A stretch of 50,637 nucleotides of DNA from Halobacteriales archaeon (GTDB lineage Archaea > Halobacteriota > Halobacteria > Halobacteriales > Hikarchaeaceae): assembly GCA_022450005.1 (NCBI GenBank), contig JAKURE010000004.1, positions 1 to 50,637 on the forward strand. Reading direction: 5' to 3'. The notes beneath the pieces were generated by a model that saw nothing but the letters and a program-made list of their open reading frames with translations, made no database searches and was not told the origin of the DNA. This document shows positions 1 to 6,844 of this stretch, piece by piece; positions within the stretch are counted from its first letter, which is position 1, and every line of letters begins with the position of its first letter. Both the position numbers and the translations under genes were made by a program.

Positions 1-253
1 CAAACACCGCTAGTTCATGAGCTCGCATTTGAAATTCCCCCTTTCAGTTATTCAAATCAGCCCTCAAAAATCGGGTCCCTGTTCTCCCTCTGATCACCAA
101 TGGATTTGCCCCTATCTCTGCACAAATTTCACATAACGCAGTTACTAAATCATCTGCAATGGGGTTCGCATCGATGACAACATTATCTCCCCTTTCTATG
201 GAAGTTGAATGCATCGAAATAATTTTTGCATGTTCCCTAATTCGCTGATCCAT
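1..253 (-). pseudogene. Aminopeptidase (M29/AmpS-like), N-terminal part, with in-frame TGA at 44-46; runs off the window edge
   Basis: MDQRIREHAKII...GDNVVIDANPIADDLV resembles the N-terminus of haloarchaeal M29 aminopeptidases. After TGA the same frame continues KGEFQMRAHELAVF, still family-like. Could be an edge sequencing error rather than a real pseudogene. Confidence 0.55.
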
Positions 254-443
254 GCCCCTTCTTTTACAGGCCATAGTATACGAATTTCGATGTGATTTGT
301 TATTTTCCCCGACTAGATTCAAATCCATCTTTGAATCCCACCACTGCCTTCCTAAGAATCAAATAAAACATAAAAAGGACCAACACAAATCCTCCTATCA
401 CCAAAAAAACAATCACTTCCATATTATACAAATTTCATCTCCA

Positions 444-1655
444 TCAAAACCGTTTCATAGCAAGGAATGCAATGGCCCCAGCCACACTAAATATGGCCAT
501 AGCTGGATATGCTATTGTAATGTCTGTACGTTCCAATATTAAACCAAACACAAATGGTCCGACAGAATTTCCTAGCGCAGACCCCGTCAAAGTTAAAGCG
601 AATAACATACCTGAGAAATCTCTTTTTGCATACACCGACGTTAGTGCATTCATCACCGGAACTGTGGTCCACATCATGGCACCTATCAGGAAAAATAACC
701 CCAACAGAAGTATCTTATTGGGCGGAATTATTCCTGTCAACAAAAGTAAAAATCCTGTCACTACAAAAGTCAATGCACCAAGATTTCTTTTATCAAACAT
801 ATCTGCCAAAGGACCTATCACAATCGTAGATACACCTGCTCCAACAAGCATAACAAAAAACACAGTATTTGCAAAACTAACCACTTCCGAACTTCTCAAA
901 AACACATAAGATGTAGTAAACGTTCTCGCAGCACCGATTTCTACACCCAATAAAAAATTAACGGTCACCAAACCAACTACCCATGGATCCCACGGAAAAT
1001 TCTTTAGCTGAGTCCTTATGTTTTCCCCCCTTGTTACAATTTTTTTCTCTAAATTCCCCACAACGTTATCTGGCTCAGCAAATTTTCTATGGAAAACCAC
1101 GGCGTATACTACCCCAACAATTGCGATTAGGGACAGAGAAAAACGCCAAGAATCAGTCATTAGAATAATTCCACCTATCACTGCTGGAGCCAATGCAGTC
1201 CCGATGGCCCCACCCAATCCATGAAATCCCATGGCCTTTCCTGCGGTATTATCTGCTTCCAAATCCGAAACTGCAGACAAACCCGCAGGATGATAGGTGC
1301 TCCCTCCTATCCCCGCTACAACTTGTGATAACAATAACGCCTGATATGTATCTGCTCTACTTGCAAGAAATACCCCAAATGCCAGCAGAACCAACCCAAA
1401 TCCAAGCACATATCTTTTTCCAATTTTATCCGCTATAATTCCCGCTGGCAATTGGAATATAGCATACACCACATAAAACACAGTCACCAACCAACCTGCC
1501 TGGGCATACGAAATATCAAAATCAATGACAATAAGGGGTATAATTGGTGGTAATGCAACACAATAGAATTCATGTAACGCGTGCGCAATAGCAATAAGTC
1601 CCATTTGCTTGGGATGCGATAAACGGTAGATATTTTTCCATTCAATCGCTCTCAT
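444..1655 (-). CDS. MFS transporter
   Basis: 403 aa, about 12 hydrophobic segments, motif A-like GIIADKIGKR and GPLADMFDKR. Confidence 0.9.
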   Translation of the reverse strand: MRAIEWKNIYRLSHPKQMGLIAIAHALHEFYCVALPPIIPLIVIDFDISYAQAGWLVTVFYVVYAIFQLPAGIIADKIGKRYVLGFGLVLLAFGVFLASRADTYQALLLSQVVAGIGGSTYHPAGLSAVSDLEADNTAGKAMGFHGLGGAIGTALAPAVIGGIILMTDSWRFSLSLIAIVGVVYAVVFHRKFAEPDNVVGNLEKKIVTRGENIRTQLKNFPWDPWVVGLVTVNFLLGVEIGAARTFTTSYVFLRSSEVVSFANTVFFVMLVGAGVSTIVIGPLADMFDKRNLGALTFVVTGFLLLLTGIIPPNKILLLGLFFLIGAMMWTTVPVMNALTSVYAKRDFSGMLFALTLTGSALGNSVGPFVFGLILERTDITIAYPAMAIFSVAGAIAFLAMKRF

Positions 1656-1744
1656 GCACTCTTAGGGGTAGTTTTCACTCTTGTCTTTTGCGATGTCAAA
1701 ATTTTTGTCCTTCCCCTTCAAAACACACGAGATATGAGTCGAAT

Positions 1745-2245
1745 TTACTTATTCTTATCAAGCATAACTTGATTTTTTTTCTTTCTTTTATCCCCATCCC
1801 AAAATTCTAGTGTCTTAGCAGTCCACCAAGTTGGACCTGAAAAATCACTAAAATCAATATTTTTTACACCACTCCCCCTAGCTATAGTTATATGTGGAAT
1901 GTAATTTTCTCCTTCTACCCCTTTGACACAACCAAAAACACTAACAAGAGTTTCATGAATTAATTTCATGCCTATGCTTTTTACTTCTATATATAACACC
2001 GGTGAAGTCCCTCTATCTGCCACCTCAAACATTTCCAAATTTCCAATTTCAACAGTAAATGGTTCTACATTTTCTAATAAAAATTTTATTTCTGATTCTA
2101 TATGCCCATCCAAATCTTCCTTTTCAAAACGTTTGATAACCAGAGTCGGCTCCTCCACAATCTCTTCCCACCCCCCCGACACGGGCGCTATTTCTTCAAT
2201 CGCCCTAACTATCCCTTGTGGAATTGAGACATTTAAACTCCACAC
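1745..2245 (-). CDS. 2'-5' RNA ligase family (2H phosphoesterase) protein
   Basis: C-terminal YIPHITIARG HxT motif and haloarchaeal-type N-terminus (WSLNV..P); the first HxT motif reads PTL. Confidence 0.75.
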   Translation of the reverse strand: MWSLNVSIPQGIVRAIEEIAPVSGGWEEIVEEPTLVIKRFEKEDLDGHIESEIKFLLENVEPFTVEIGNLEMFEVADRGTSPVLYIEVKSIGMKLIHETLVSVFGCVKGVEGENYIPHITIARGSGVKNIDFSDFSGPTWWTAKTLEFWDGDKRKKKNQVMLDKNK

Positions 2246-2261
2246 AACTATCTTCTCCTAT

Positions 2262-2717
2262 TCATACAATCTCATATATGAGAATCCCTGTGACAATTAT
2301 CCCATATATGATGTTCACCACCATAAATTTAATACGAGATTGAATGACTAGTTTGCCCTCCCATACCCAATCCATTTTCATTCCCAATACAATCTCCATC
2401 CCAATTTTATCACCTATTATCCCCACTATCAACCCAACTAAAACTCCCCACACGAGGACATTCACAATAGTCATCGAGATTATTGGGAGTATTGTCGCTA
2501 CAATTCCCCCCATTAAAGATCCATAAATTATACTTAGTAATATCCCTTGATTCAGATATTCATCTGCCTCCCCCGTGCCTATGTATTTAGATACGAATAT
2601 CGACGCAGGTAGGATACTTTTATTTCCTACTCTTTTATCCATCACAGAAACTATTAACAATGTAATCGCACTCGCACCTACGATCCCCGCTATCATTCCT
2701 CCTACAACTGTTGACAT
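2262..2717 (-). CDS. Hypothetical membrane protein (start uncertain; ORF open to 2813)
   Basis: About 4 hydrophobic Gly-rich helices from MSTVVGG; resembles haloarchaeal conserved membrane proteins. Confidence 0.6.
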   Translation of the reverse strand: MSTVVGGMIAGIVGASAITLLIVSVMDKRVGNKSILPASIFVSKYIGTGEADEYLNQGILLSIIYGSLMGGIVATILPIISMTIVNVLVWGVLVGLIVGIIGDKIGMEIVLGMKMDWVWEGKLVIQSRIKFMVVNIIYGIIVTGILIYEIV

Positions 2718-2821
2718 ATAGCTGATCCTTTTTTTTCTACCCTTTTCTAAGTTTTTATTAATATTTCCACACTCGTTACTCTCTTTATCCAAACCCATGT
2801 CTGCCCGTTCCAAACATCATA

Positions 2822-2830
2822 TATTATAAG
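2822..2830 (+). promoter_or_regulatory. TATA box of argG (leaderless-type spacing)
   Basis: TTATAA at 2824-2829, about 25-29 nt before ATG 2853. Confidence 0.5.
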
Positions 2831-2852
2831 CCGTCACTCCAATATACTGATC

Positions 2853-4061
2853 ATGAACCGTGTGGCACTTGCATTCTCTGGTGGTCTCGATACAACCGTT
2901 TGTGTTTCAATTCTTAAAGAAGAATATGGATATGAAGATGTTATTGGAGTTTCAGTCAATGTAGGTCAACCTAAAAACGAATTCGAACAAGCAAAAGAAA
3001 CGGCAAAAGAGATATCTCTAGATTTAAAGATACTCGATGCTAGAACTGATTTTGCCAATTTATGCCTCGATTCTGTTAGAGCAAATGCAAGCTATCAAGG
3101 ATACCCCTTGGGAACTGCACTCGCCCGGCCTATCATAGCAAAAGCCATCCTAGAAGAGGCGAAAAAGACCAAATGCAATGCACTCGCACATGGGTGCACT
3201 GGCAAAGGAAACGACCAATTACGATTCGAAGCCATTTGGCGTGGATCCGGCCTTGAAATAGCAGCCCCTATACGCGATCTGGGGCTAACCAGAACTTGGG
3301 AAATACAATACGCAAAAGAAAATAATTTACCTATCAAATCCGGAAATGATGGGATTTGGAGCATCGATACAAATCTTTGGTCTAGATCAATTGAAGGGGG
3401 TGAACTTGAAGATCCCAGTACTATCCCTCCAAGTTCTATTTATGAGTGGACTCAATCTCCTTCTTCTGAATCTAAATTAGTAACCATAGAATTCGACGAA
3501 GGATATCCTGTCGCAGTGGACGGAACTAACTATTCTCCTGTAGAATTAATCGACCATCTAAACACACTATGTGGCCCTTTCGGAGTCGGAAGAACTGATG
3601 TAATGGAAGATAGGATACTGGGACTCAAAGTCCGAGAAAATTACGAACATCCTGCTGCAACTGCCCTTCTCAACGCACATTCCGCATTAGAAGATCTAGT
3701 ACTTACTAAGGAAGAGCGAAAGTTCAAAATCTCAGTCGATGATGCATGGGCAGAACAAGCATACTTGGGACTAATTTATTCACCTTTTATGGAAGCATTG
3801 AATGGCTTCATTTCTACTACTCAAAAACGAGTAACAGGATCTGTGACGTTAGACCTTCAAGGTGGCCACGCAAGAGCAGTTTCTCGAGAAAGTCCCTACG
3901 CAGTTCATTCTGCATCAGCAGCTTCTTTCAATACCCCTGGAGTCATAGATGACATAACACAATCAGATGCCATAGGGGTCGCAAAATACCACGGCCTCCA
4001 AGAAAGAATGTCTTCAGCACTCTTCGACTCTGAAATCCCTACAACACAAAACAAAAAATGA
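2853..4061 (+). CDS. argG: Argininosuccinate synthase
   Basis: LAFSGGLDT, AHGCTGKGNDQLRFE, SIDTNLWSRSIEG motifs. Confidence 0.97.
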   Translation: MNRVALAFSGGLDTTVCVSILKEEYGYEDVIGVSVNVGQPKNEFEQAKETAKEISLDLKILDARTDFANLCLDSVRANASYQGYPLGTALARPIIAKAILEEAKKTKCNALAHGCTGKGNDQLRFEAIWRGSGLEIAAPIRDLGLTRTWEIQYAKENNLPIKSGNDGIWSIDTNLWSRSIEGGELEDPSTIPPSSIYEWTQSPSSESKLVTIEFDEGYPVAVDGTNYSPVELIDHLNTLCGPFGVGRTDVMEDRILGLKVRENYEHPAATALLNAHSALEDLVLTKEERKFKISVDDAWAEQAYLGLIYSPFMEALNGFISTTQKRVTGSVTLDLQGGHARAVSRESPYAVHSASAASFNTPGVIDDITQSDAIGVAKYHGLQERMSSALFDSEIPTTQNKK

Positions 4062-4072
4062 AAAATAACTCC
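4030..4072 (+). repeat. Left direct repeat (attL-like) overlapping the argG stop and the captured ATG
   Basis: CTGAAATCCCTACAACACAAAACAAAAAATGAAAAATAACTCC matches 5375-5416; identical 14-nt core CACAAAACAAAAAA. Confidence 0.75.
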
Positions 4073-4615
4073 GACCCAACCCCATTTGGAAAGGAAGTTG
4101 AGAAGTTAGAGAACTTCACAGAACTAATACAACGTGGAGCGCGCATGGGGATTTCGTTGTCCATTTTATATATATTAGTTCGGGTAATAGCTGAACGGGA
4201 AATTGATTGGTTAGTTGCAGATATCGTGGTGGTGTTTGCATTCTCTCTGATCTGTCTCATGATGTTTTTAGGGGCATATGTGGGCCATGCACTGGATATG
4301 TTTGAAGATCCACCACAAACAACTAAGCAGATGTTCAAATCACTGGATATCCCTCCCAAAAGTAGCAAAGGGTGGTGGTTTTTGGGAGGTGCAGTTGTGA
4401 CCATTGTGATGGTGACTGTGGTGACTCTGTACTTCCTTGACAGATATTACTGGATGGGTTATCAATGGCAGATAGCACCATTGGTGGGTTTGGCGGTCGT
4501 AATGCTAGAGATGATGCTCATAGGCGCGGGGGGCAGTAATGCTGAATTTGTACTGAAAACTATCCAAGCATCAGGGGTAGTTGGCAGGGGTAATAGACGG
4601 GTAGAAAGAAGGTAG
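4058..4615 (+). CDS. Hypothetical 4-TM membrane protein (element cargo) starting at the apparent ancestral argH ATG
   Basis: 185-aa ORF with 4 hydrophobic segments; ATGA overlap with the argG stop; begins MKNNSD, compare KNDSSD at the ArgH N-terminus. Confidence 0.65.
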   Translation: MKNNSDPTPFGKEVEKLENFTELIQRGARMGISLSILYILVRVIAEREIDWLVADIVVVFAFSLICLMMFLGAYVGHALDMFEDPPQTTKQMFKSLDIPPKSSKGWWFLGGAVVTIVMVTVVTLYFLDRYYWMGYQWQIAPLVGLAVVMLEMMLIGAGGSNAEFVLKTIQASGVVGRGNRRVERR

Positions 4616-4721
4616 GAAATCCACGTCAATAATACGGTTCAGTGTGACATTATATACTGACCAGAGCCTCCCATTATACATGACAGCCGATTATGTCAAA
4701 GTGGAGCTGGGAGAATCTAAT

Positions 4722-4763
4722 ATTTTACAAACTATGAAAGGCATTTTACAAACTATGGAAGGA
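4722..4763 (+). repeat. Tandem 21-bp direct repeat (2 copies)
   Basis: ATTTTACAAACTATGAAAGGC (4722-4742) and ATTTTACAAACTATGGAAGGA (4743-4763). Confidence 0.85.
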
Positions 4764-4796
4764 CCATTTGAGGACATTTTGCCCAATTTCCCATCT

Positions 4797-4812
4797 AAAA
4801 AGAGCTTTATAG
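4797..4812 (+). promoter_or_regulatory. BRE/TATA promoter of the integrase-argH fusion (leaderless spacing)
   Basis: Purine-rich AAAAAGAG followed by TTTATAG (4806-4812), about 23-29 nt before ATG 4835. Confidence 0.55.
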
Positions 4813-4834
4813 TTCGTAAAACATAACTTTTACA

Positions 4835-6844
4835 ATGGTTAGGAAAGTTGAGTTCCCAAAGAAAAAAGGCAAATTTGCCTGCTGGCTAAGCCGTGAGGAA
4901 GTAAAACACCTCATCGAACAATGTACAGAATCAAGAGACGAAGAAATAATTCTCACCCTTTTAGCCTCTGGTTTGAGAGTTCACGAAGCCTGTAAAGCTT
5001 CCTCGGAGGATATTTTTGAAGACGGTCGAGGTCTAATGATAAAAATTTGGGGTAAAAATTCCCAATACAGGGAAGCCCCCATTCCGGCCACCCTGAAAAC
5101 GGCCGACCTACCAATCACACGTAAATACAACGGAATCCACAGGCCCATTTCAACCAACACAGCTTTAGCATGGGTAAAAAAAGCAGGGAAAAACTTGGGA
5201 TGCCCAGAACTCTCACCACATGATTTACGTCGTTCCTACGCCTCGATCCTGCTTGAATCCAATATCGACCCGACCGTTATAATGGAATGGCTGGGCTGGA
5301 GTAGCTGGGAGACATTTCAACGATTCAATATGAACGTGGCAAATCCAGATTTTCAAAAACACGAACGAGAAAAACTGAATTTCCTACCCACAAAACAAAA
5401 AACAAAAAATGACTCCTCCGATATAATACGTGGAACCCGTTTCAGCGGAGGGCCTGCTAGAAACTTCCTCTCTTCAATGGATGTAGATCACCAAATCTTC
5501 GATGCAGATATCGCAGTAGATTTGGCACACGTAGTAATGTTAGCAGAAGAAAATATAATCTCCAAAGACAACGCCAAAGGCATACTAGAAGCTCTTTTTT
5601 CCATTCACGAAATGGGATTTGAAAGCTTACCTCCTGCTGAGGATGTCCACGCAGCAATTGAAACAGCGGTAGTAACTAAAGTTGGAGATTCTGGTGGGAG
5701 AATGCATACTGCTAGGAGTAGGAACGACGAAGTTTCAACATGCATTCGTTATCAATTGCGAAGTGACATTTTGTCTCTACTAAATTCGGTTTTATCTTTG
5801 CGAGAAACTATCCTTTCCATCGCCAAGAGCCACACCTCTACTCTAATCCCTGGGTTCACTCATCTACAAAGTGCACAACCATCAACCCTTTCTCATTGGC
5901 TCGTATCCTACTATGGATCTCTCGAACGGGACACTAACCGATTATTTGATGCTTATAGTCGCATCAATCTATCCCCTCTCGGATCTGCAGCCTTTGCAGG
6001 AACTCCCTTCCCCATCAACCGTGAACGAACCGCAACCCTCCTTGGATTTGAAGGTATAATAGAAAACACAATGGACGCCGTTTCTTCTAGAGATTTTTTA
6101 CTAGAATCTGCGGCAGCTCTGTGCTCTCTTTCTATTACATTCTCAAATATGTCTGAAGATTTAATTTTTTACTCAAATAAGAGCTTTGTTGAGATAGACG
6201 ATGATTACGCGTCTACTTCTTCTATCATGCCTCAAAAGAAAAATCCAGACACACTAGAATTAATACGAGCGGCTGCAGCAACAACCCTTGCCACCTTTTC
6301 CGGTACTTTTACAACTTTAAAAGGCCTCCCCCGTGCTTACAATAGAGACCTTCAATCAGCGACCCCTTATATTTGGAACTCCGTCGAAAAAATGATCGAT
6401 TCCGCAGAAATTCTCTCCAAAATAATAGAAACTTCAACCTGGAATGTCGAACTTCTTTCTAGTTCTGCAGGAGAGGGATTCTCCACCGCAACTGGCGTTG
6501 CCGATACCCTAGCTATGGCCGGAATACCCTTCCGAAAAGCGCACCAAATCATAGCAAAATCAGAAAGTAATTATGAAGATATTTCTTCAAATTTCAACGA
6601 AATAATGGGATCCCCACTCAGTGAATTTTGTACCCAGGATTCAATAGAATCTGCTTTAGATCCCCTCAAAAACGTCGATATGAGGGATTCATTAGGGGGC
6701 CCTTCGCCCACCATTGTTTTAAATTCAATTTCCAATGCTAAAAACAACCTAAAATCAGATTTTTCCCTCCACACGGCGCATAAAGAAAAAATAGACCAAT
6801 CAAAAGAAAAATTGATTCAAGAAGCTATGAGTTACTTGAAATAA
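4835..6844 (+). CDS. argH: Fusion ORF: SNJ2-like tyrosine integrase (aa 1-184) plus argininosuccinate lyase (aa ~190-669)
   Basis: N-part has SGLRVHE, WGK, SPHDLRRSYA, WLGW; C-part has RFSGGP, HTARSRND, GFTHLQSAQP, STSSIMPQKKNPD; no stop between them. Confidence 0.92.
   Translation: MVRKVEFPKKKGKFACWLSREEVKHLIEQCTESRDEEIILTLLASGLRVHEACKASSEDIFEDGRGLMIKIWGKNSQYREAPIPATLKTADLPITRKYNGIHRPISTNTALAWVKKAGKNLGCPELSPHDLRRSYASILLESNIDPTVIMEWLGWSSWETFQRFNMNVANPDFQKHEREKLNFLPTKQKTKNDSSDIIRGTRFSGGPARNFLSSMDVDHQIFDADIAVDLAHVVMLAEENIISKDNAKGILEALFSIHEMGFESLPPAEDVHAAIETAVVTKVGDSGGRMHTARSRNDEVSTCIRYQLRSDILSLLNSVLSLRETILSIAKSHTSTLIPGFTHLQSAQPSTLSHWLVSYYGSLERDTNRLFDAYSRINLSPLGSAAFAGTPFPINRERTATLLGFEGIIENTMDAVSSRDFLLESAAALCSLSITFSNMSEDLIFYSNKSFVEIDDDYASTSSIMPQKKNPDTLELIRAAAATTLATFSGTFTTLKGLPRAYNRDLQSATPYIWNSVEKMIDSAEILSKIIETSTWNVELLSSSAGEGFSTATGVADTLAMAGIPFRKAHQIIAKSESNYEDISSNFNEIMGSPLSEFCTQDSIESALDPLKNVDMRDSLGGPSPTIVLNSISNAKNNLKSDFSLHTAHKEKIDQSKEKLIQEAMSYLK
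5375..5416 (+). repeat. Right direct repeat (attR-like) at the integrase/ArgH junction
   Basis: CTGAATTTCCTACCCACAAAACAAAAAACAAAAAATGACTCC; ACA at 5402-5404 aligns with ATG at 4058-4060. Confidence 0.75.

Follow-up and report, generated by a model that had tools for sequence, protein, structure and literature searches.

The 50,637-bp stretch of archaeal DNA analyzed here, referred to as the window, carries a 1344-bp insert at the junction of argG and argH, the genes for argininosuccinate synthase and argininosuccinate lyase. The insert is bounded by two direct repeats resembling attachment (att) sites, designated attL and attR, and holds a tyrosine-recombinase-type integrase gene whose reading frame continues into argH. 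We consider it likely that this insert is an immobilized, vertically inherited relic, that its integrase open reading frame (ORF) and promoter are now part of argH expression, and that selection maintains the dead integrase domain. The window corresponds to contig C34 of a metagenome-assembled genome (MAG) of 79 contigs and 1.01 Mb (G000), which is 71% complete. The genus carrying the insert, Marine Group IV (Hikarchaeia-like), is represented by MAGs that are 58-78% complete.

The integrase frame continues into argH

Positions 4835-6844 form a single ORF of 669 aa, in which residues 17-165 match Phage_integrase and the remainder is ArgH, without any stop in between. A stop codon between integrase and argH is likewise lacking in all eight carrier sequences. 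In seven of these, attR reads ...AAAAAATGACAAATGAC... and the argH ATG is kept within the integrase frame (KQK-M-TND...). In the window and in a metagenome contig (L044), attR reads ...AAAAAACAAAAAATGAC..., with ACA AAA in place of ATG ACA; the change comprises three substitutions and leaves the length unaltered. Consequently, the window has ACA at 5402-5404, in the argH frame, where sister genomes hold the argH ATG. The first-pass annotation had described a start-codon swap between the two flanking repeats. The contrast of ACA with ATG indeed exists in the window; it is not a property of the repeats, however, as seven of the eight carriers keep ATG in attR and the three substitutions came later. 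The ACA allele is confined to the window, L044, run X1 (possibly the source sample) and one contig of run X4. X4, which belongs to another study, yields contigs of both alleles over 5329-5482, at depths of 5.6 and 4.56.

An out-of-frame ATG at 5409 opens an ORF of five codons only. The closest in-frame starts, ATG 5330 (Met166) and GTG 5336 (Val168), both lie within the integrase ORF and are followed, further upstream, by ATG 4835. The window argH itself is intact, with a ratio of nonsynonymous to synonymous divergence (dN/dS) of 0.055 relative to the sister locus L034, and is the sole argH found in the MAG. Given the loss of the argH ATG from an intact, sole gene copy, ArgH most likely starts inside the integrase frame, so that a read-through fusion or a form with a long N-terminal extension is most likely the functional product of the window allele. 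The 669-aa form is present in a public database as one 90% cluster (P0006) of 57 members, named argininosuccinate lyase.

The features of the locus are as follows.

2853 to 4061, plus strand: argG, argininosuccinate synthase, 402 aa (ORF list; Pfam Arginosuc_syn_C 7.2e-73, Arginosuc_synth 8.3e-57)
4030 to 4072, plus strand: attL, left att-like direct repeat, 36/43 identical to the right copy
4058 to 4615, plus strand: ORF1, predicted membrane protein (hydrophobic) of 185 aa, a chimera (ORF list and comparison)
4616 to 4721, plus strand: spacer present only in the long form of the insert (alignment of long and short forms)
4722 to 4757, plus strand: 15-nt motif ATTTTACAAACTATG, two direct copies at 4722-4736 and 4743-4757 (repeat and motif searches)
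4806 to 4822, no strand assigned: TATA-like TTTATA at 4806-4811, about 26 nt before the integrase ATG (sequence)
4808 to 4822, minus strand: inverted copy of the 15-nt motif, 12/15, over the TATA-like box (motif search)
4835 to 5389, plus strand: integrase-derived domain, codons 1-185, single-domain tyrosine-recombinase catalytic fold, no stop codon (Pfam PF00589, 1.4e-19)
5375 to 5416, plus strand: attR, right att-like direct repeat, translated as integrase-ArgH linker (repeat alignments)
5402 to 6844, plus strand: argH, argininosuccinate lyase, no start codon of its own in the window allele (Lyase_1 1.6e-52, ASL_C2 4.6e-09)

The argG TGA (4059-4061) overlaps an ATG at 4058, as seen in the sequence and the ORF list. 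Downstream of argH lie lysW, argX, argC, argB, argD and an argE-like gene, all named from their translations alone. An ORF of 60 aa (4644-4826) that begins inside the spacer has no family match in Pfam.

A direct repeat marks the insertion site

The first-pass annotation had read the locus as an insertion at the argG/argH junction, with imperfect direct repeats of about 43 bp as att-like sites beside an integrase gene. Our analysis agrees on these points. The core is a 28-nt direct repeat (4045-4072 vs 5389-5416) with 25/28 matches (89%) at a spacing of 1344, and gapped local alignment extends it over 4030-4072 and 5375-5416 (36 identical positions in 43 columns, one gap). Throughout the window, no other pair of 28-mers offset by 200-3000 reaches 25 matches, and a comparable pair was lacking in all 20 first-order Markov simulations, so that a chance match, named beforehand as a concern, is not the explanation. 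The repeat is a genuine feature and no accident of A-rich sequence, since it is far cleaner in sister genomes (L033, L035, L036 and L039). Across the carriers it measures about 42 bp, and the most degenerate pair is that of the window. The identities between attL and attR are:

Window: 36/43
L033: 41/42
L034: 36/42
L035: 35/35
L036: 34/34
L037: 34/39
L038: 37/42
L039: 39/40

Translated in the argG frame, the DNA shared by the two repeats gives a peptide different from that of the integrase frame, and the similarity is therefore one at the DNA level. The left repeat covers the 3' tail of argG together with the ATGA junction and the opening codons of an ancestral argH, and is homologous to the empty junctions of two sister genomes. 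In G007, the argG tail leads through an ATGA stop/start overlap into argH (MTSDSPDII...) without interruption; its contig ends 81 nt upstream of the argH ATG, where argG is visible as a tail only. The junction of G002 is uninterrupted as well, with the argH ATG 8 nt ahead of the argG stop. An empty site close to the argG-ATGA-argH junction reconstructed in the first-pass annotation is thus present among sister genomes. As stated there too, no tRNA gene lies at the target; none was found in the 50,637 bp of the window.

The A-rich argG tail (4030-4061 in the window) differs by single-base indels among lineages. The argG stop falls at either of two close TGA/TAA codons, within the first or the second ATGA-like motif, the first being ATAA in L039. 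An inverted repeat at 4611-4623/5376-5388 was considered as a possible att half-site bordering ORF1 and rejected as probably due to chance, because we estimate that about one such 13-nt match is expected per 1.9 kb and because it is also present in the copy of the ORF1 gene located elsewhere in G005.

The recombinase domain lacks the nucleophile tyrosine

The integrase domain matches PF00589 with 70.9 bits (cut-off 27.1) over residues 17-165, and PHROG integrase families at 2.1e-27 and 1.4e-24. The protein measures about 190 aa, PF00589 being the sole domain detected by Pfam and a SAM-like N-terminal domain being absent. SNJ2-family proteins combine a SAM-like domain with a Phage_integrase domain, as described in part of PMC8371274, and the earlier assignment to the SNJ2 type is not borne out. 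A set of 5.8 billion proteins contains five close homologues (184-212 aa, 70-79% identity), and an exhaustive search returned 2612 proteins at E ≤ 0.001, including a large number with a single domain and about 180-230 aa. An AlphaFold2 model of the domain, based on a 50-sequence alignment, has a pLDDT of 92 and a pTM of 0.83, high for residues 1-165 and lower in the linker. Its top Foldseek matches are XerH, XerA, IntI4 and Cre (probability 1.00, query TM 0.61-0.68), and both HMMER and Foldseek identify Xer-type proteins as the closest solved relatives. A single-sequence model of the 669-aa fusion reached a pLDDT of 34, and nothing was drawn from it.

Active-site residues were compared in an alignment of 147 of the 155 homologues retrieved, the eight outside 160-450 aa having been dropped. 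The window protein keeps R48, K74, H129, R132 and W155; the corresponding columns hold R in 143/147, K in 141/147, H in 144/147, R in 147/147, and either H (104/147) or W (41/147). At the nucleophile column, occupied by Tyr in 144 of the 147 homologues, the window has Asn165 (AAT, 5327-5329), directly preceded by Phe. The sequence RFNMN is found in all eight carriers, and Tyr in all five close homologues. No Tyr follows W155 in the window protein until ArgH is reached. HMMER alignments place the Tyr-bearing segment of Pyrococcus abyssi XerA (4a8e) at the Asn165 position. Replacement of this Tyr by Phe or Ala inactivates Cre, XerH and lambda Int, as stated in the portion of bioRxiv 10.1101/2022.10.21.513154 drawn on here; the integrase is therefore predicted to be unable to cleave DNA by the mechanism of its family.

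One other PF00589 gene is found in the MAG (G000:C75:993-1565, L076), in an open frame of 263 aa; it presumably encodes the chromosomal Xer-type recombinase.

The insert is fixed in its clade

A search for ArgH in 41 genomes gave matches in 36. Identity to the window is 99% for G001 and 97% for both G003 and G004, and all three, like G005, have an open frame of 674 aa. The open frames of G007 (83% identity) and G002 (82%) are insert-free and measure 507 and 505 aa, respectively. The integrase is present in five of the eight genomes of the genus (G000, G001, G003, G004 and G005). No copy was detected in G002 (70% complete), G006 (75%) or G007 (58%), nor in any of 11 genomes from other genera of the family. 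Four integrase loci, all within the carrier genus, emerged from a scan of all species genomes; a metagenome scan returned eight, four of carrier type (L037-L039 and L044) and four more distant (L040-L043). All five carrier genomes and all four carrier-type metagenome contigs are occupied. The same architecture was recovered in Logan contigs of three runs from three studies (X1, X4 and X15). No joint across the insert/empty site was seen in the Logan contigs of four runs, which are contigs only and in which rare excised forms are invisible.

As the window stems from a 71% complete MAG in 79 contigs, a chimeric assembly or misassembled contig might be suspected. However, recurrence of the architecture in four other species genomes, four metagenome contigs and the Logan contigs of three independent studies makes such an artefact extremely improbable.

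The insert occurs in two forms. G000, G001, L037 and L038 have the long form, in which about 1360 bp separate the anchors. The short form lacks ORF1, spans 742-764 bp, and is found in G003, G004, L036 (to judge by its coordinates, probably the contig of G005), L039 and one X15 contig. In short-form carriers, attL and attR match at 34/34 to 41/42. In a tree rooted with mobile-element integrases, the short-form L036 branches first among the carriers, and the short form would therefore probably be ancestral. Among four genomes, variable sites amount to 7.7% in the integrase and 7.3% in argH. The insert is single-copy in G000; additional copies of the element, which the first-pass annotation suggested looking for, are absent from this genome. 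The insert is a fixed, vertically inherited relic.

The X15 contig, whose RNA label is a guess, has a length of 1364 nt and extends from argG across the short form and the integrase to the 5' end of argH; X17, an RNA library, yields one contig of 253 nt that covers 3804-4053 only. Neither demonstrates transcription of the fusion. The argH of L039 is frameshifted in its last third, with the fusion frame stopping after ...NSIEK, for which an assembly error or a pseudogene is possible.

These results bear on the proposal, made in the first-pass annotation, of an active mini-element whose integrase excises and re-integrates, switching argH between an ATG-started and an integrase-dependent state in the manner of 'active lysogeny'. 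The att-like repeats are intact, recombination between them would restore the argG-ATGA-argH junction, variants common to both repeats within a lineage suggest exchange, and all catalytic residues besides the Tyr are kept. Nevertheless, such a switch is very improbable. With the nucleophile Tyr turned into Asn in every carrier, the element would be immobile and no excision switch would operate. Moreover, the MAG holds no second integrase copy, its one other PF00589 gene being L076; all carriers are occupied; the insert and argH have diverged in parallel; no repeat pair is more degenerate than that of the window genome itself; and, with the argH ATG kept in seven of eight carriers, the insertion leaves argH on.

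Purifying selection acts on the dead domain

Pairwise NG86 dN/dS values of the integrase range from 0.02 to 0.11, with synonymous divergence (dS) up to 0.46 (27 of 28 pairs with dS > 0; one pair is identical). Between the window and L036, the counts are 41.5 synonymous (Sd) and 13.5 nonsynonymous (Nd) differences, giving a pN/pS of 0.09 (binomial p 9e-17). Across the eight sequences, 51 codons vary synonymously only and 16 with an amino-acid change. For ArgH, dN/dS lies between 0.055 and 0.18 in five sequences, a set without L036 and L037 (partial) and L039 (frameshifted). Values for mobile-element homologues of the integrase are 0.03-0.20. The catalytically dead integrase domain is under strong purifying selection. 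Its retention suggests a recruited role, e.g. in regulation, immunity or assembly.

Alternatively, the integrase sequence might have no function as a domain and be kept for the promoter and start that express argH, low dN/dS reflecting nothing but tolerance of the fusion partner. Several observations fit this view: the integrase ORF is stop-free up to argH in all eight carriers, the window argH is intact and constrained despite loss of its ATG, the integrase ATG is preceded, at 26 nt, by a TATA-like box, and the insertion broke the ATGA coupling of argG and argH. On the other hand, the domain is as constrained as ArgH or more so, its dN/dS falls within the range of the mobile-element homologues, the DNA-contacting catalytic residues are kept except for the Tyr, and a simple leader should have shortened or drifted over a dS of 0.2-0.46. 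Taken together, we regard a leader devoid of domain function as unlikely, although less so than the other alternatives discussed here.

A putative promoter and operator

The TATA-like box and the copies of the 15-nt motif would constitute the promoter and operator of the integrase-argH ORF. The two direct copies of ATTTTACAAACTATG belong to a tandem repeat of 21 bp that precedes the integrase gene and is conserved in G001, G003 and G004. The whole window contains eight matches to the motif at up to three mismatches, compared with 2.67 expected, and none of 100 shuffles reached eight. The promoter region of the window integrase is homologous to that of its mobile-element relatives L041 and L043, and repeated copies of a similar motif lie upstream of the integrase in L043. 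A scan with a bacterial promoter/terminator model, which is not applicable to archaea, showed no excess over shuffle expectation.

The source element and the origin of ORF1

Integrase relatives that keep the Tyr (L040-L043) are located on marine contigs of 1.9-6.5 kb. L040 and L042 are rich in ORFans, among them several putative membrane proteins, and share a conserved block of 231-, 276- and 171-aa proteins. In addition, L040 encodes a 301-aa protein with weak DnaA-like (P-loop) and helix-turn-helix matches, and matches one PHROG of unknown function at 1.3e-13. Terminal overlap is absent from L040 and L042, and none of 53 pattern matches in a viral contig collection is a relative of the integrase. 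These contigs probably belong to an undescribed family of small mobile elements or viruses of marine archaea. Their integrases end in ...DFLN-stop, and similarity to the window ends at ...TTCCT(A/T)A, where the host argG-tail sequence of attR begins. A fuzzy search allowing up to seven mismatches detected no arg-att-like sequence in L040-L043. Within the insert, no further element gene (replication or structural) has a family match in Pfam or PHROG, and there is no second copy in the genome.

The existence of these relatives raises the possibility of a defensive role, in which the dead integrase would block related elements of the L040-L043 type as a dominant-negative subunit or as an occupant of att, the fusion to ArgH being incidental. 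In its favour, integrases with the Tyr (70-79% identity) are encoded on marine contigs that are rich in ORFans and resemble mobile elements, and they have the integrase promoter region in common with the window; furthermore, purifying selection persists after the loss of catalysis. Yet the relatives' integrases end at FLN-stop without arg-att-like sequence and may use other targets, and nothing related is found in the viral contig collection. We consider a defensive role improbable.

ORF1 (4058-4615), originally interpreted as cargo of the element, has a composite origin. Its first ten or so codons come from attL and constitute the relic argH start (MKNNSDPTPF...), hence its coupling to the argG stop. 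Its body (approximately 4089-4611) is 83-94% identical to a single-copy gene sited elsewhere in congeners. In G002 (L053) and G004 (L054) this gene lies between a class II ribonucleotide reductase-like (nrdJ-like) and a TPP-enzyme gene. In G005 (L064) it lies between methyltransferase and ATP-synthase genes, as an insertion of about 672 bp with a 7-10-bp direct repeat at its ends. The former site is empty in G000, G001, G003, G005 and G007, the latter in G000-G004. The ORF1 body is, to judge from these chromosomal placements, a host gene and not element cargo. No match to ORF1 was found in Pfam or PHROG, nor by tblastn in L040-L043, and the best protein-atlas score of 0.88 is below the reliable range and gives no family. 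Its dN/dS is about 0.5, from very few changes in four sequences.

This gene is single-copy and occurs at three loci in one genus, with cleanly empty sites elsewhere; it looks like a moving gene without a recombinase of its own. The membrane-protein gene with its several loci is a second puzzle of the locus.

Comparison with known systems

Archaeal integrated elements have att direct repeats of 8 to more than 100 bp, and their integration into protein-coding genes is also reported, in the sections of PMC8371274 on which we rely. The insert resembles the tyrosine-integrase elements described there in that the integrase lies beside an att site, the repeats measure tens of base pairs and the 3' end of the target gene is rebuilt. 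It differs from them in its target, the stop/start overlap of two operon genes, in retaining integrase and promoter as sole survivors, and in an integrase that lacks the Tyr and is fused to a downstream host gene. In contrast to the SNJ2/XerA-type proteins with a SAM-like domain covered by the same sections, the window integrase is a single-domain protein. Reminiscent of the 'suicidal' integrases of the SSV type described in PMC8371274 (see also PMC7253208), att lies within the integrase ORF and integration changes the product. However, the att of the insert overlaps only the last ten or so codons, and, unlike the SSV-type case outlined in PMC8371274, the catalytic domain stays whole and its C-terminus is swapped for ArgH.

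YopR of the Bacillus phage SPbeta, as presented in part of bioRxiv 10.1101/2022.10.21.513154, similarly keeps a tyrosine-recombinase fold without recombinase activity and is retained as a DNA-binding regulator. In that account, YopR keeps the Tyr, has lost other catalytic residues and has CB and CAT domains; it is phage-encoded and is described without an enzyme fusion, whereas DNA binding by the window protein is something that we infer. With the 'active lysogeny', skin and nifD elements, as reviewed in PMC8987985, the insert shares a degenerate element with a recombinase in or beside a host gene. Those systems need an active recombinase for reversible or developmental excision, while the window nucleophile is missing and no empty site was seen in the carrier clade. 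A likeness more distant than that to YopR exists with Crypton-derived eukaryotic genes, for which the relevant part of PMC3212892 describes recruitment of a mobile-element tyrosine-recombinase domain into host proteins; these are eukaryotic, ancient and joined to other partners. In the limited library of literature searched, we found no published account of the locus or of a prokaryotic fusion of an integrase with a metabolic enzyme, and the word 'integrase' is absent from both of the main Hikarchaeia papers.

A model for the argG-argH insert

We propose that a small element entered the argG-ATGA-argH junction in the ancestor of one clade of the genus, by site-specific recombination across an att of about 42 bp. 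In the simplest history, attP would have carried about 42 bp of the host junction. As att overlaps the end of the integrase ORF, the integrated integrase would have been left without a stop and translated into ArgH. All that would have survived of the element is the integrase gene with its promoter region, flanked by both copies of att. The change of Tyr to Asn would have precluded the phosphotyrosyl intermediate and rendered the element immobile. Later, in the window lineage, the host membrane-protein gene may have inserted just after the remnant of the argH start that attL contains. The argH ATG would then have mutated to ACA in the window genome, where ArgH would be made as the 669-aa fusion or from a start at Met166 or Val168. 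The integrase promoter and start would now drive argH, and the dead domain would be kept for a function of its own.

Several points weigh against this model. Because seven of eight carriers keep the argH ATG, ArgH may be a separate protein there and the fusion a minor by-product. The fusion protein, its promoter and any DNA binding are themselves deductions. A nucleophile other than Tyr is possible, inactivity having been judged from sequence alone, and, the MAG being 71% complete, a helper integrase could have been missed. In addition, the genomes cluster differently in the integrase tree than in that of argH, and for some pairs dS is higher in the integrase than in the genes beside it (0.18 between the window and L034, compared with 0.066 for argH and 0.04 for ORF1). 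This disagreement and the raised dS indicate recombination between lineages: homologous exchange occurs within the locus, and inheritance is not purely clonal. Finally, lineage-specific variants are shared by the two repeats of one genome, CCTACCCAC being present in both repeats of L036 and CCTACACAC in both of L035. This means that attL and attR still exchange sequence, by gene conversion or conceivably through a recombinase acting in trans; we would attribute it to gene conversion.

L035 and L036, set against the other carriers, point to concerted evolution of two 42-bp repeats that are 0.75-1.3 kb apart. The presence of AAAAAT in both window repeats was also considered as a sign of exchange and set aside as a weak case, since L037 has AAAAAT in attL only.

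As to what the retained domain does, the role that we prefer, although we hold it to be somewhat less likely than not, is DNA binding or autoregulation at the three copies of the 15-nt motif, which would make ArgH similar to a 'trigger enzyme'. More doubtful is the specific version in which the 669-aa protein has two functional domains, the dead integrase serving as a sequence-specific DNA-binding module on ArgH that couples the state of the arginine pathway to transcription of argH-lysW-argXCBDE. Its binding sites would be the three copies of the motif at the promoter of its gene and, perhaps, the att repeats.

The locus preserves the successive stages by which a selfish element becomes host coding sequence: it integrated where two genes meet, was reduced to integrase and promoter, lost the Tyr, became joined to an essential biosynthetic enzyme through obligatory read-through and, in one allele, deprived argH of its start. 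The case matters for annotation too: public records label the 669-aa fusion as plain argininosuccinate lyase. If the DNA-binding role is true, the protein would be a prokaryotic 'trigger enzyme' that arose from a recombinase domesticated out of a marine archaeal mobile element.

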